Positions 44,542 to 53,020 of a DNA stretch of 54,823 nt are shown here, in pieces. Source of the DNA: a virus; the IMG/VR virus record IMGVR_UViG_3300045988_158467, positions 1 through 54,823 of that record. One strand, 5' to 3'. Each line of letters opens with the position of its first letter. The first letter of the stretch is position 1. The position numbers and the translations under genes are program-made. The notes beneath the pieces are model-generated. The model made no database searches, had not been told where the DNA came from, and saw nothing but the letters and a program-made list of their open reading frames with translations.

Positions 44542-44625
44542 ATTGCACAATCTGAATCAATTGCGTAATAAAATGTTTATAAAAATGAAGTCATGTTAAT
44601 ACTCTAAATAAAAAGGAGTGTTGGC

Positions 44626-44724
44626 ATGGCTTTATTATATATAGCATTAGTATTATGTTTAATAGGCATATTAATAGGTATTCTGTCTATAATAGGGATA
44701 ATTGTACTTTATAAATCAATATAG
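44626..44724 (+). CDS. 32-aa hydrophobic peptide
   Basis: AAAAGGAG RBS. MALLYIALVLCLIGILIGILSIIGIIVLYKSI. Its own terminator follows. Confidence 0.45.
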   Translation: MALLYIALVLCLIGILIGILSIIGIIVLYKSI

Positions 44725-44732
44725 AAAGTTGA

Positions 44733-44761
44733 AGGATCTAAAGAAATTTAGGTCCTTTTTT
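44733..44761 (+). terminator. Rho-independent terminator
   Basis: AGGATCTAAA-gaaa-TTTAGGTCCT followed by a T5 run. Confidence 0.65.
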
Positions 44762-44784
44762 AATACAAAAAAAGGGGTGATATT

Positions 44785-45060
44785 ATGGATTTTCATTGCT
44801 GGAATGAAGAAGGGTGTACAGTAGAATTAGATGAAAGAGAGAAACAAGCATATATAGATTATGTTCAAAAGAAAAATCCAGGACAACAAATTAAAAGCCT
44901 GGTTGTAAAATTGGATGGCGATTATGTTGATTTGAAATATGAAGTAGTTCCAATTCCATTTAAAAGAATTCGCAGAATTACAGGCTATTTGGTAGGTGAT
45001 ACAACGACTTGGAACGATGCAAAATTGAATGAACTCAAGGATAGAGTAAAACATAGTTAA
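44785..45060 (+). CDS. orphan NrdD-type glycyl-radical-domain protein (91 aa)
   Basis: C-terminal RRITGYLVGDTTTWNDAKLNELKDRVKH matches the class III RNR C-terminal signature R.(C/T)GYL......(W/F)N.(G/A)K..E...R..H. The candidate radical Gly codon is at 44983-44985. Confidence 0.55.
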   Translation: MDFHCWNEEGCTVELDEREKQAYIDYVQKKNPGQQIKSLVVKLDGDYVDLKYEVVPIPFKRIRRITGYLVGDTTTWNDAKLNELKDRVKHS

Positions 45061-45077
45061 GAATAGAGGTGTTGTCT

Positions 45078-45302
45078 ATGAATACAGAAATAATTGTTGC
45101 AATATTAGCATTTGTTGGAACCCTAGCAGGTTCTTACTTTAGCAATAACAAGACAACTGCAGTAATACAAGAACAGATAAAAAATATAAAAGAAGATATA
45201 TCTATTCTGAGTAATAGGGTGGATAAGCATAATAATCTTATAAGTAGAATGAGTGTTGTTGAAGAAAAAATAAAGGAATTAGAAAATAAAGGAGAGAGAT
45301 AA
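45078..45302 (+). CDS. XhlA-like membrane protein (lysis-associated)
   Basis: N-terminal TM segment IIVAILAFVGTLAGSYF followed by a coiled coil. Lies directly upstream of the holin gene. Confidence 0.6.
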   Translation: MNTEIIVAILAFVGTLAGSYFSNNKTTAVIQEQIKNIKEDISILSNRVDKHNNLISRMSVVEEKIKELENKGER

Positions 45303-45575
45303 ATGTTAGATTTAAGTGTTATAAGTAATTATTTAGTAGTTGCAGTAATATTAGTATGTTGTTGTATAGGATATGTAATAAAAACAAGTTTAGATTTTAT
45401 ACCTAATAAATATATACCATTAATCATGGCCTGCATAGGAGTGGTTTTAAACTACTTTATAGCAGGCTATTTTAATGTAAATGTATTACTAGGAGGAATG
45501 TTGAGCGGTTTAAGTTCTGTAGGACTTCATCAAGCTTTTAAAAATTTAATTGAAAATAAAGAAGGTGATAAATAA
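45303..45575 (+). CDS. holin
   Basis: 90 aa with 2-3 TM segments and a charged C-terminus. Lies directly upstream of the endolysin gene. Confidence 0.7.
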   Translation: MLDLSVISNYLVVAVILVCCCIGYVIKTSLDFIPNKYIPLIMACIGVVLNYFIAGYFNVNVLLGGMLSGLSSVGLHQAFKNLIENKEGDK

Positions 45576-46450
45576 TGAAAACTCAAGGTGGTTTTACCTT
45601 ACTTGAAAATGAAAAGGATGTTAAAAATTGGCTTGCAAAACAAAAGGTAAGTAGAAGAATAACAAGATTACAAGTACACCATATGGATATGCCTAGCTAT
45701 TCTACATGGGAAAAAACTGATAAAAAAGTATTTTCAGAGCCACACTTTGGGAGAACACAATCGCTAGATGATTATGGAAAAAGAACATGGCATTATAGTG
45801 ATGGACATGGTCATTACATAGCACAACATTTTAATGTTTTTTTAGATGGGAAAATAACAACTGGTAGAAACCTTAATAGTACTCCAATCGGTATTAGAGG
45901 TTGGAATACAAATGCTATCTGCATAGAAATATATGGATGCTTTGACAAGGGCAAAGACAAAATGACATCCGCACAAAAGAAAGCCGTTATATATCTATAT
46001 GGAGAGTTATGTAAAAGATTTAATATCCCAGTTAACACTTCTCATATAAGACCTCATTGTTGGTTTACTGCTGGAGGAACTTACTTAGGTAAATATAATC
46101 CTTCAAGAAGTGCTAAAACTTGTCCCGGCACTAACTTCTGGGGATATGGATGTTCTCCTGACGGATTTGCTCACTTCATAAAGGATGTAAAAAACTATGT
46201 AGATGGTAAAAAAGCAGAACCTAAGAAGGAAGAACAAACTAAGGCAACAAAATTTGAAATAGTAACACTTGATAAACTTAATATAAGAAAAGTAGCAGAT
46301 TGGGATGCAGATCCAGTTACTACAGTTAAGAAGGGGCAACATCTACAAGTAATAGATACAGTAGATGCTAAAAACGGAAGTACTTCTATGTATCGCTTAG
46401 AATCAGGTTTATACATAACTGCATCTGATAAATATGTAAAGAAAGTATAA
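45575..46450 (+). CDS. endolysin: N-acetylmuramoyl-L-alanine amidase (Amidase_2/PGRP-like) plus SH3-like C-terminal domain
   Basis: ...RLQVHHMD...AQHFNVFLDG...CIEIYGCFD...SHIRPHCWF...KTCPG. C-terminal LNIRKVADWDADPVTTVKKGQHLQVID. Confidence 0.75.
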   Translation: MKTQGGFTLLENEKDVKNWLAKQKVSRRITRLQVHHMDMPSYSTWEKTDKKVFSEPHFGRTQSLDDYGKRTWHYSDGHGHYIAQHFNVFLDGKITTGRNLNSTPIGIRGWNTNAICIEIYGCFDKGKDKMTSAQKKAVIYLYGELCKRFNIPVNTSHIRPHCWFTAGGTYLGKYNPSRSAKTCPGTNFWGYGCSPDGFAHFIKDVKNYVDGKKAEPKKEEQTKATKFEIVTLDKLNIRKVADWDADPVTTVKKGQHLQVIDTVDAKNGSTSMYRLESGLYITASDKYVKKV

Positions 46451-46454
46451 TAAA

Positions 46455-46496
46455 AAGGCTGGTAGGGATTAATTTCCTTACCAACCTTATTTTTAT
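46455..46496. terminator. bidirectional terminator between convergent genes
   Basis: AAGGCTGGTAGGGA-ttaatt-TCCTTACCAACCTT, a 14-bp stem with G:U pairs, flanked by an A-run and a T-run. Confidence 0.65.
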
Positions 46497-46530
46497 TTAT
46501 TATTCCGATAATTTTCTACCGCAAAATGTT

Positions 46531-47254: not shown

Positions 47255-47971
47255 TTATTCATATCCATTCTCTCGTGCAAACTTATGAAATTTATCATAC
47301 GATACTTCAAACACTTTTTTCTCTTTTCTTAGTTTTTTAGATTTTTTATATTTATCCCTTAAAAGTTCCATAAAATCGTATTTTGAAAATGGAATACCTA
47401 TAAAATACTTAAATCCTTTATTGTATTTATTCCTCATATGAGCTACTATTGTATTTTCTCCAATTTGGAAAAATAAATCGACATTTGAAGGGATATGAAG
47501 GTTACCAAACTTATAAGCCCATTTCCACTCATAAAGTTTTTCATATGGATTTTTCGGATATTTTGTTATATCTCTTATTTCTTTATCCATAACATTAAAT
47601 ACCCAAACTAAATTATTATTTTTACTATAAAATGTACTTCTTTCGATAAAATCCTGAGATTTCAAAGGAGATTTTTGAAACTCTATGACTAAATTCCCTG
47701 CTTTTATATCAGCTCTATGTTTCTCGCCTTCTTCATTTAAGACAATTTCTCTAAATTGTTCAGGAAAATGTTCTTGCCAATACTTGTGCCACTCACTCAT
47801 TTCATACCAGTCATCGCAATTAACTTTTGTTTTATGAGCAAAATGCCATTGATTCACTATTCCTTTCTTTAGTATTAATTTCCCGTGGCAACAAGGACAA
47901 TAATAGTTATTTCCTTCAACAGCATCTTTTATATTGATTCTATTTTTTAAATCGTCATAAGCATAAAACAA
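47255..47971 (-). CDS. CoiA-like competence-family nuclease
   Basis: YYCPCCHGKLILKKG...WHFAH... then HRADIKAGNLVIEFQKSPL...ERSTFY...LVWVFNV matches the CoiA-family Zn-finger plus PD-(D/E)xK pattern. TTG start. Confidence 0.65.
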   Translation of the reverse strand: MFYAYDDLKNRINIKDAVEGNNYYCPCCHGKLILKKGIVNQWHFAHKTKVNCDDWYEMSEWHKYWQEHFPEQFREIVLNEEGEKHRADIKAGNLVIEFQKSPLKSQDFIERSTFYSKNNNLVWVFNVMDKEIRDITKYPKNPYEKLYEWKWAYKFGNLHIPSNVDLFFQIGENTIVAHMRNKYNKGFKYFIGIPFSKYDFMELLRDKYKKSKKLRKEKKVFEVSYDKFHKFARENGYE

Positions 47972-50535: not shown

Positions 50536-50745
50536 ATGGATAAATTAAATGCTTTTTTAGGTAAATTTACAGTTGAGTGCTTAGAAACTTTAAGTATCGT
50601 TTGCTATGATTGGCTAGTAGTAGCTGGATTGATAGCTTTAGTTTTATATATATTTGGTTGGGAAAAAGGAAAGAGAGTAGGCTTAATGTGTCCTGCTATA
50701 TATATCATAATCAACATATTAAGCAAGGTGTTATGCCATGCTTAA
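50536..50745 (+). CDS. small two-TM membrane protein (VirB3-like position)
   Basis: AAGGAGG RBS. TM segments WLVVAGLIALVLYIFGW and LMCPAIYIIINILSKVL. Confidence 0.55.
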   Translation: MDKLNAFLGKFTVECLETLSIVCYDWLVVAGLIALVLYIFGWEKGKRVGLMCPAIYIIINILSKVLCHA

Positions 50746-53020
50746 TATAATTCCTAGTAAACCTAAAAGTATGAAATTAAGTGATTATTACGAATATAGA
50801 AAATGCGAATATTCAATTATCAGATTAGTTCCTACAAAGAGCAACAAAAATAATAATACTGAACAAATAGCATCTCTAATTAATAAAATGTTTAAGCAGT
50901 CTAATAAATATATAAATCAAGCTAGTAAAAAGTTAATTATCGTTCAAAAACCCAAAGTATCCTTTTATATTCATATTACAAAAGGAAAGGTCCAATTTTA
51001 TTTTATAATTCCTAAATTATATCTAAATCAATTTAAAATAAAATTTCAAGAGGTTTGGAAAAATATAGAGATTGAAGAAGTGGATAATATTCCAATGGAT
51101 ATTAATAGCTGCAGTAAATTTGATTTGCATTATAAATATGATGAGTCATTATCTCTTGCGGTTGATAAAAGAAATAATGACTTACTCAATAGCAACATGA
51201 CGATTACATCTATATTGGAAGAAAATGAAATGGTGGGAATATTATATAATTTTATACCGACTAGTGAAAAAGAATCCAACTATTTTAGATCTAATACCTA
51301 TCCAAGAGCAATTCAAAGATACAAAAATGGAGAAAATCTAAAAAAGTCAAAAAATATTAAAGATTTATCTGTAATAGCATTAAAAAATTTTATCTCACTC
51401 ATAAACGACCTCTTAAATTGTATTTTAAACGTACCACAAAATAATCAGCTTATACTTAATCCTTTACAATGCGAAATCTCTCATAGCACTAAAAGAAAGG
51501 GTGAGAAGGCAATTTGTAAAAATCAGAGTATAATTTTAACCAAATCTAGTGAGAAATCAAGAGAAATTGAACTTTCTAACGCTTTTTCTAATACTTTCAA
51601 GATAATTTCAGATGATAATGAGTTAATCATTAATGAAATTACTAAAAACATTGATATAAAAAAGACAACTATAAATCATGTGAATGTTAATAAAACAACA
51701 ATTGAAGAAAGCAGTAATTTTATAAGTATGCCTAGTCTAGAGGTTATAGATCAATTTAAGATGATTGAACATAATAAGTGCCTAGAGTTGAAAGCCCCTA
51801 AATGTTTAGAAGGTGGAGAAGTAAGAATTGGAACTGTAAAGAATAAAGAAAACAAACAAGAGGTATATTACTCCATGGATGAGCAAATGAAAAGATTAGG
51901 AAGAGTATTGCTTGGCAGTATGGGTAGTGGTAAATCTTATTACATGCAAAATATGGCAAGTGATATTATAAAGGCTGGTAGAGGATTAGTAGTAATAGAT
52001 TATATAGATAAATGTCAGCTATCAGATAATATAAAGAAAATAACTTCAAAGGATAAATTAGTAGAAATTAATTTCAATGATCCTAAGCAAGTTCAATCAT
52101 TTAACTTTAATGAGTTAATATTTAATGAAGATGATAACATATACTATAAGGTTAATATAGCTATGCAGAAAGCTGAACAAATGCAATTATTATTAGACAG
52201 TATAAATGATGACAATAGTAAACTTACACCAAGAATGCTTAGATATTTTTATGCAGCTGCTACAGTAGTATATTATAAGAATGTAAATGCTAGTTTTAAA
52301 GACATTATTAATATATTGAAATATCCAGATAAAAGATTTGAGTTAATAAAGAATGTACCGGATATTTTAATAGAAGAAATAGAAGATTTAAAAGATCTAG
52401 ATAAAATAGATAGCAAAGGTAGAGTAGAGAATTATGATAGCAAGATAGATGGAATACTGGACCGTGTTAGCTGGTTAAAAACTAATTTATATACAAAACT
52501 AGCATTTAATAAAGAAGCTGATAATAATATTAATTTTGTAGAAGCTATGAAGCAGAATAAAGTAATTCTGATAAAAATACCTGAACAGTATTTTAAAAGC
52601 AGAATGATTAGAAATGTAATTGCCACATACTTTTTAAATAAAGTTTGGATTAGTAAGCAAATAGATTGTAGTACACATACAGAATTATTCTTTGATGAGA
52701 TACATCAATGTTACAACTGCCAACTACTTATGCAAAACATATTGGTAGAATGTAGAAAATTTCAATTAACTCCTACTTTAGCTTTACATTATTTAGATCA
52801 GTTAACTCCTAAGTGCAAAAATAGTGTATTGGCATCTGGATCTAGTTATTTATTATTGCAAGGATGTAATGTAAAAGCATTTAAAGAATTATCTACTTAC
52901 TTTGAAAAAGATGGATATAGTGAAATTGATTTAGCTGAATTAGATAGATACAACGCTTTATGTCTAATAAAGAATGAAGAACAAGGATATAGCTCGTTTA
53001 TATGTAAGCTGCCTAGTTAG
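50738..53020 (+). CDS. 760-aa P-loop ATPase of the FtsK/HerA-VirB4/VirD4 (AAA_10/TraG-D_C-like) type with an uncharacterised ~370-aa N-terminal region
   Basis: Walker A GSMGSGKS (51914-51937). Walker B LFFDE (52685-52699). Downstream ECRKFQLTPTLALHYLDQL...SYLLLQG. Overlaps the preceding gene by 8 nt. Confidence 0.65.
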   Translation: MLNIIPSKPKSMKLSDYYEYRKCEYSIIRLVPTKSNKNNNTEQIASLINKMFKQSNKYINQASKKLIIVQKPKVSFYIHITKGKVQFYFIIPKLYLNQFKIKFQEVWKNIEIEEVDNIPMDINSCSKFDLHYKYDESLSLAVDKRNNDLLNSNMTITSILEENEMVGILYNFIPTSEKESNYFRSNTYPRAIQRYKNGENLKKSKNIKDLSVIALKNFISLINDLLNCILNVPQNNQLILNPLQCEISHSTKRKGEKAICKNQSIILTKSSEKSREIELSNAFSNTFKIISDDNELIINEITKNIDIKKTTINHVNVNKTTIEESSNFISMPSLEVIDQFKMIEHNKCLELKAPKCLEGGEVRIGTVKNKENKQEVYYSMDEQMKRLGRVLLGSMGSGKSYYMQNMASDIIKAGRGLVVIDYIDKCQLSDNIKKITSKDKLVEINFNDPKQVQSFNFNELIFNEDDNIYYKVNIAMQKAEQMQLLLDSINDDNSKLTPRMLRYFYAAATVVYYKNVNASFKDIINILKYPDKRFELIKNVPDILIEEIEDLKDLDKIDSKGRVENYDSKIDGILDRVSWLKTNLYTKLAFNKEADNNINFVEAMKQNKVILIKIPEQYFKSRMIRNVIATYFLNKVWISKQIDCSTHTELFFDEIHQCYNCQLLMQNILVECRKFQLTPTLALHYLDQLTPKCKNSVLASGSSYLLLQGCNVKAFKELSTYFEKDGYSEIDLAELDRYNALCLIKNEEQGYSSFICKLPS

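Follow-up and report, generated by a model that had tools for sequence, protein, structure and literature searches.

The closest described systems are GrcA (YfiD) of E. coli and Y06I of phage T4, which are small stand-alone radical parts encoded away from pyruvate formate-lyase and are thought to be activated by the activase of the parent enzyme and to replace its radical domain once this has been cleaved by oxygen (PMC13450708). GrcA consists of a disordered N-terminus and a folded C-terminal domain, and a review of June 2026 describes spare parts as known for formate lyases only, with the situation for other glycyl radical enzymes undetermined (PMC13450708). Among the ribonucleotide reductases (RNRs) the class II enzyme NrdJa/NrdJb of Pseudomonas aeruginosa is split, with a C-terminal functional part encoded as a separate polypeptide, and two surveys of the RNR family mention split enzymes for class II only (PMC4520616, PMC9669993). 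In the full-text literature, with most subscription journals lying outside the search, we found no description of a stand-alone tail of the class III enzyme NrdD or of a split class III RNR.

The gene described here lies in a window of 54,823 bp, by which we mean the whole stretch of DNA that was analysed, and encodes a protein of 91 amino acids. Like GrcA/YfiD and Y06I the product is a small stand-alone protein that contains the glycyl-radical part only and no barrel, and like Y06I it is encoded by a phage. Unlike GrcA/YfiD it carries a tail of the NrdD type and not that of pyruvate formate-lyase (PF01228, motif RVxG[FWY]). Its layout is also reversed in comparison with GrcA, with a folded N-terminal domain and a flexible tail, and its bacterial relatives, unlike GrcA, appear to be obligate subunits in some species. 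It resembles NrdD in its last 35 residues, F-x-RIRRITGYLVG...WN.AK..E..DRVKH, which correspond to the glycyl-radical tail, and differs from NrdD (PF13597, TIGR02487, 8p23) in having no barrel, cysteine finger loop, ATP-cone or four-cysteine zinc ribbon; because the barrel and the zinc ribbon are lacking it cannot be called an NrdD. NrdJa/NrdJb is likewise a natural RNR with its C-terminal part on a separate polypeptide, but it belongs to the adenosylcobalamin class and what its detached part carries is not the radical site but reducing cysteines together with a zinc finger. By analogy we infer, without biochemical evidence, that the protein may work in the manner of GrcA/YfiD and T4 Y06I while standing outside that family.

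Genomic setting of the small gene

The window is a complete viral record with direct terminal repeats, and the antirepressor and tyrosine integrase encoded in it indicate that this gut phage is temperate. A megablast comparison of 20 kb of the window with known phages returned one short gut-virome record and nothing else. The features discussed below are collected in Table 1 together with two further proteins of the phage.

The initial annotation had described a 91-aa ORF with its own ribosome-binding site starting just after a terminator. Both the ORF and the ribosome-binding site are borne out by the ORF list and the sequence, and the terminator stands in part. A hairpin followed by a run of U residues does end about 24 nt upstream of the start codon and has a predicted folding energy of -13.7 kcal/mol (z = -3.85), with none of 200 shuffled sequences folding equally well, but a simple consensus scan did not call it as a terminator. 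A simple consensus scan also recognised no promoter between the hairpin and the small gene. The 32-aa peptide ORF that ends at the hairpin belongs to a block that moves together with the lysis genes among related phages and comprises, in addition to this ORF and the small gene, a membrane/coiled-coil protein of 73-77 aa, a holin matching PF16079 and an amidase endolysin matching PF01510. The tail-fibre genes lie on the upstream side of the small gene and the membrane/coiled-coil protein, holin and endolysin on its downstream side.

Table 1 Features of the small gene, its product and their surroundings, with positions counted from the first nucleotide of the window
Feature	Position	Strand	Basis or remark
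Co-moving block in related phages	44546-46528	+	88.6-92% identity where tail modules differ
32-aa hydrophobic peptide ORF with own ribosome-binding site	44627-44725	+	Just 5' of the small gene
Hairpin (44731-44758) plus U run, terminator-like	44731-44764	+	Folding; closes the upstream 32-aa peptide cassette
Ribosome-binding site AAGGGGTG	44772-44779	+	5 nt 5' of the ATG at 44785; read from the sequence
Gene for stand-alone NrdD-type glycyl-radical protein, 91 aa	44785-45060, stop codon included	+	ORF list
N-terminal domain, residues 1-56	44785-44952	+	AlphaFold2; proposed docking domain, function inferred
Glycyl-radical tail, residues 57-91, IPFKRIRRITGYLVGDTTTWNDAKLNELKDRVKHS	44953-45057	+	hhalign to NrdD C-termini
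Gly67 (GGC codon), predicted radical site	44983-44985	+	Aligns with the radical glycine of the NrdD RITGYL motif
238-aa protein	47255-47971	-	Matches N-terminal and nuclease-like domains of competence protein CoiA
760-aa protein	50738-53020	+	Common to all related phages; without Pfam match

An NrdD-type radical tail on a domain without detectable relatives

The C-terminal end of the product reads ...FKRIRRITGYLVGDTTTWNDAKLNELKDRVKHS; it had been quoted correctly in the initial annotation except that the final S was missing, and had been taken there as a stand-alone NrdD-type glycyl-radical domain. This assignment is now supported by Pfam, NCBIfam, PHROG, the solved structure 8p23 and hhalign, all of which match the tail. 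Residues 59-90 match the final 30 profile positions (533-562 of 562) of the Pfam family NRDD (PF13597) with an E-value of 4.1e-7 and a score of 29.5 bits against a cut-off of 26.2. The same residues match the NCBIfam NrdD models with E-values of 7.6e-10 to 7e-7, at scores of 28-38 bits against whole-protein cut-offs of 326-764 bits, and also match PHROG 487, while the tail matches residues 708-738 of the solved Prevotella copri NrdD (8p23) with an E-value of 1.8e-5. The alignment against NrdD C-termini that had been suggested as a check was performed with hhalign for 14 of them and gave an E-value of 5.2e-26 and a probability of 99.7, over residues 57-91 only. The absence of any significant NrdD profile match, which would have refuted the assignment, is thus not what these profile comparisons return.

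The motif R-x-x-G-Y-L ... N-x-x-K ... E ... R-x-x-H of the NrdD C-terminus is present in the protein, and the tail is 64-91% identical to the tails of fused NrdDs from 14 Clostridia genomes. NRDD was the sole significant family, with no match to Pfam Gly_radical (PF01228) at E-values up to 10. Judged by PF13597 and the NCBIfam models the ten-stranded barrel with its catalytic cysteine loop is absent from the 91-aa protein, in agreement with the initial annotation, and neither a barrel nor a second NRDD match was found in the complete 54,823-bp phage record. NrdG was not found in the record either. Across 118 aligned family members R63, R64, I65, G67, Y68, L69, N77, K80, E83, R87 and H90 do not vary, and within the N-terminal part the same holds for E19 and Y23.

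Residues 1-56 are predicted to form a strand (2-6), a helix (17-30) and two further strands (34-44 and 47-56), and AlphaFold2 modelled them from 118 sequences with a pLDDT of 82-90. The tail reached a pLDDT of 43-64 in the isolated model, i.e. it has no confident fold alone. When residues 1-56 were compared by hhalign with the 110 residues that precede the tail in NrdD no alignment was obtained, nor did they align to the zinc-ribbon region of NrdD, and a Foldseek search of the model against the PDB gave nothing better than an E-value of 0.5. Given the lack of a Foldseek match and the restriction of the hhalign match to residues 57-91, we regard the protein as a domain without detectable relative fused to an NrdD tail. 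Cys5 and Cys11 are confined to the phage subgroup and are not conserved across the family, so there is no zinc ribbon; a zinc site formed by H4, C5 and C11 was considered and rejected on the basis of the alignments, in which these residues are not conserved. In a separate observation, six stretches of a 3,015-aa protein (P0161) match residues 29-79 of the small protein and could represent a repeated domain related to its N-terminal part.

Family size, distribution and selection

A word-indexed search returned 6,712 clusters at 90% identity among 8,000 scored candidates, with the listed matches nearly all 86-102 aa in length. An exhaustive HMMER search of 1.84 billion representatives gave 1,252 clusters at 50% identity with E-values up to 1e-3, of which 210 had E-values up to 1e-10; most were of 85-140 aa, and no full-length NrdD was present among the best 150 of these clusters. 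The family is characterised by a length of 85-100 aa, by the conserved N-terminal residues E19, Y23, D44-G45, L50 and Y52, and by F59, RIRRITGYL, N77, K80, E83, D86-R87 and H90 towards the C-terminus. The phage protein holds every conserved residue of this family of NrdD tails of about 90 aa and is 45-62% identical to bacterial chromosomal members among the matches listed.

Members are present in at least 590 species genomes and, in the survey of phages that the initial annotation had proposed, on at least 512 viral contigs. The species genomes lie mostly within the Clostridia, in records labelled Oscillospiraceae, Ruminococcus, Eubacteriaceae, Anaerovoracaceae and Christensenella, and some records are labelled Erysipelotrichaceae, Acholeplasmatales, Megamonas and Coriobacteriia. 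When the phage protein served as query, 10 species in an even sample of 400 from the class contained a family member at E-values up to 1e-12. The chromosomal copies appear to be single genes in ordinary chromosomal surroundings, away from nrdD, nrdG and lysis genes. For 16 phage copies the median pairwise dN/dS was 0.156. Conservation and purifying selection across many phages and bacteria rule out a stray fragment of nrdD, and the second outcome that would have counted against the initial annotation, a piece of host nrdD without conservation in other phages, does not apply.

Tail-less NrdD and separately encoded tails in bacteria

Five genomes with the small gene were inspected for their NrdD and in four of them a fused NrdD with its own tail was found. 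In the fifth, the cultured Ruminococcus isolate G003, NrdD ends in ...AHERMKRISCCK followed by a terminator, stopping exactly where other NrdDs go on with G-Y-L. The same ending extends across the genus of this isolate (16 species), in which NrdD genes end in ...ERMKRIsCC and a stop codon at the glycine position; it was read directly in 14 of the 16, with one more gene at a contig end and one genome with small-protein matches only. Between one and four small tail proteins are encoded in 15 of the 16 genomes, NrdG matches were found in all 16 (15 of them over the cut-off), and a class I or II RNR was found in none. In the absence of any class I or II RNR the tail-less NrdD is the only RNR found in this genus and the small protein the only carrier of the radical motif. 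As far as can be judged from sequence, some bacteria appear to have no radical-bearing part of class III RNR other than the small protein.

In other genera nine more genomes pair a tail-less NrdD with the small protein, and here the cores end 0-5 residues past E-R-I-x-R-I-x. Among 151 sampled genomes of the bacterial family to which the Ruminococcus isolate belongs, a separate tail was found in 47 of the 48 with a tail-less NrdD and in 13 of the 86 with a fused NrdD only (Fisher p 6e-23, from hand counts and uncorrected for shared ancestry). The sole genome with a tail-less NrdD and no separate tail is incomplete, at 1.1 Mb.

The majority of the separate tails belong to another type, in which an ORF of about 45-60 aa with an AGGAGG site and an ATG of its own follows downstream of the core at a distance of 15-470 nt. 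Many genomes of one Clostridia family thus have a class III RNR made up of two genes. The adjacent tail ORFs read M..MQKQSVVGKDVPFERIRRITGYL... (loci L218-L233, e.g. G097:C9:11200-12200 and G140:C22:46900-47900), and the nrdD cores of this type carry a short C-terminal extension with a decayed appearance. In two NrdD genes tandem glycyl-radical tails (RIRRITGYLVGT...DRVKH twice) were found in a single reading frame (L257, G075:C98:3700-4516; L258, G096:C417:1000-2000). The adjacent-type cores bear extensions that resemble decayed first tails, and together with the tandem tails these suggest a route from duplication to split; the tandem tails themselves could be a built-in spare or an intermediate toward the split form. 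A split intein or intron was also considered and was rejected both for the tail-less cores, since those of the remote type end cleanly (one with a terminator) and have no intein-sized extension, and for the adjacent tails, since these have their own ribosome-binding sites and start codons.

In 14 genomes the tail of the small protein was compared with that of NrdD from the same genome, giving 0.80 for the own tail versus 0.76 for others (permutation p 1e-4). This difference is small and confounded by shared ancestry and is not used here as evidence. Our analysis supports, in the absence of biochemical or expression evidence, a model in which small proteins of Clostridia in all likelihood supply the radical tail to tail-less NrdD in trans. 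The natural tail-less cores end almost at the residue that is cleaved by oxygen and can, by analogy, be regarded as the closest available counterpart of the GrcA rescue experiment.

NrdR operators upstream of chromosomal copies

In order to count as an NrdR box a site had to show 3 or fewer mismatches to the operator consensus. Of 97 chromosomal small genes, 40 had such a match in the 300 nt upstream, with the gene of the Ruminococcus isolate G003 among the 40, versus 17 of 485 control windows taken at these loci (p 5e-22). No match was found at any of 21 phage-type copies and only 2 were found at 47 other viral loci; near the small gene of the present phage (about 44.7 kb) there is no NrdR-like box. 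We propose, with no expression evidence to draw upon, that the phage copy is expressed under the control of the phage and not of NrdR. The initial annotation had likened the protein to GrcA, and this comparison gains support from the link to NrdR and from the clades in which NrdD ends at the glycine position and the radical motif resides on a separate protein.

Phage lineages and the probable host

All six phage genomes checked, the window and five others, carry the small gene and no NrdD core. Four of the five others are complete and three of the five measure 231-251 kb, with complete genomes of 148-251 kb among those checked. In two more distant phage lineages the small gene lies directly upstream of unrelated holin/endolysin pairs, an assignment based on the order of the ORFs and their N-terminal sequences and not on a family search. 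Among near-identical copies (L090-L112) the phage gene is a mosaic in which three short variable cassettes occur in many combinations: SLVV, SLIV or YITV; VVPIP, VKPMP or VKSMP; and, in the loop after GYL, VGDTTTW or the one-residue-shorter SEVKQF.

Related prophages lie inside the gene for an NMT1-type binding protein, of which a 179-aa stub of the 341-aa protein is present (L234:19461-20000, L280-L289), and the genes flanking these prophages allowed the host species to be traced. With the flanking host protein as query the best match in a class-level sample had 51% identity, and in an order-level sample a match of 100% identity identified the species genome G771. The NrdD loci of G771 have a G+C content of 28%, close to the 26-32% of the phage. 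The assignment of G771 was made via mosaic relatives of the phage and not via the phage itself, and as the G771 reference genome contains no related prophage the host of the present phage is inferred.

G771 encodes a fused NrdD carrying the tail KFDRIRRITGYLVGTVDRFNDAKKAEVRDRVKH, with NrdG immediately downstream of it, as well as two class I/II RNR genes, and no small gene was found in it. The phage tail is about 70% identical to the tail of the host NrdD, with the biggest difference in the loop after GYL. Given a host with a fused NrdD, NrdG and other RNRs, the phage copy would be an accessory part and not an obligate subunit. As a separate observation, a second nrdD of G771, of the E. coli type, carries an interruption of about 1.25 kb that falls between Pfam positions 279 and 280 (L297 / L299, G771:C20:36842-42867); the same interruption occurs in a second species (G836:C25), and an Rfam search of the interrupted host nrdD returned no family at gathering score.

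Proposed function and alternatives

Glycyl radical enzymes are destroyed by oxygen via cleavage at the radical glycine, and in E. coli oxygen truncates NrdD at this residue. Our preferred reading, to which we would give a probability of about 0.62, is that the gene encodes an autonomous glycyl-radical module for class III RNR that acts as an accessory part for host NrdD. It draws on the homology to NrdD tails, the conservation of the family, the natural tail-less enzymes, their co-occurrence with separate tails and the link to NrdR, all of which are observed. In a putative sequence of events the host activase NrdG, together with S-adenosylmethionine, would abstract a hydrogen from Gly67 of the free protein. 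The tail would then enter the barrel of a host NrdD that lacks its own tail or in which this tail has been cleaved by oxygen or has swung out, and the radical would be passed from the inserted tail to the active-site cysteine, while the N-terminal domain would dock on the NrdD surface and so replace the lost covalent tether. In this way the phage copy might keep up or restore the anaerobic synthesis of dNTPs in a lysogen or infected cell, for instance when the cell has been exposed to oxygen in the gut. Radical installation by host NrdG and repair after oxygen damage are inferences, and for activation, docking and any benefit to the phage there is no biochemical or expression evidence. The wider proposition that class III RNR is naturally a two-piece enzyme in many Clostridia with a detachable and exchangeable radical tail, and that temperate and jumbo gut phages spread free tails as an accessory gene, which would plug into host NrdD and sustain the anaerobic synthesis of DNA precursors after oxygen damage, we hold with somewhat less assurance, at a little above even odds.

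This reading is not without difficulties. With two class I/II RNR genes and a fused NrdD in the host the gain for the phage is not evident. The small gene moreover travels with the lysis cassette, behind a terminator-like hairpin and without a recognisable promoter of its own. It may be expressed late with the lysis genes, and late expression would be a poor fit to a role in dNTP supply. Also to be set against the reading are the identity of only about 70% between the phage tail and that of host NrdD, the low confidence of the tail in the isolated model, the assignment of the host via mosaic relatives and the lack of a correction for ancestry in the co-occurrence statistics.

The alternative that survives best, although we consider it improbable, is that the protein is a decoy or inhibitor, a free tail that would bind host NrdG or the NrdD barrel unproductively and thereby throttle or re-route anaerobic dNTP synthesis or titrate the activase. 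Such a role would be compatible with a phage that has neither an NrdD core nor NrdG, with a host NrdD that is already complete, with the absence from phage copies of the NrdR operators found at chromosomal ones and with the swapping of the loop after GYL (VGDTTTW versus SEVKQF) among close phage relatives. A decoy could however dispense with the radical glycine, though it would still require the activase-binding residues, and Gly67 is kept along with all of the other invariant positions. In addition purifying selection acts on the phage copies just as it does on chromosomal copies, bacteria with tail-less NrdD have no possible radical carrier other than close homologues of the protein, and less dNTP would hurt replication of the phage. 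The hijacking of NrdG, which the initial annotation had offered as an alternative to the maintenance of dNTP supply, is not excluded.

No better placed, and if anything a shade less probable than the decoy, is another partner or role, for example as an oxygen-sensitive switch tied to the lysis cassette or as a radical donor for another enzyme, with specificity residing in the N-terminal domain. The gene moves as a block with holin and endolysin and lies directly 5' of unrelated holin/endolysin pairs in two distant lineages, and its N-terminal domain has no known relative, all of which would suit such a role. The weight of the association with lysis is reduced by the fact that in temperate phages the slot between tail fibres and lysis genes often holds accessory genes. 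Against this role, moreover, the chromosomal members lie away from lysis genes and are tied to NrdR and to tail-less NrdD, and the sequence of the tail is NrdD-specific.

That the gene is a non-functional nrdD remnant or a chance ORF is contradicted by the data, since although the match to NrdD is limited to about 35 residues and such genes carry the plain label NrdD in public records, the gene has a dN/dS of 0.156 and an intact ribosome-binding site, its N-terminal domain is conserved and confidently predicted, and thousands of full-length homologues exist in bacteria and phages.

Implications

If the accessory-part reading is true, the protein would for the first time extend spare parts, or separate radical subunits, beyond pyruvate formate-lyase to another glycyl radical enzyme, and the question of spare parts would become open to direct testing for the enzyme on which strict anaerobes depend for their DNA precursors. 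Natural test systems are available in the cultured Ruminococcus isolate, in which the sole RNR is tail-less, and in the phage gene with its host that has a fused NrdD. The label "anaerobic ribonucleoside-triphosphate reductase" in public records hides both truncated NrdD cores, whose function is inferred, and small radical subunits. For phage biology the gene would represent a very compact auxiliary metabolic gene carried on a large number of viral contigs (at least the 512 counted here), and it may influence the response of gut anaerobes and their prophages to transient oxygen.
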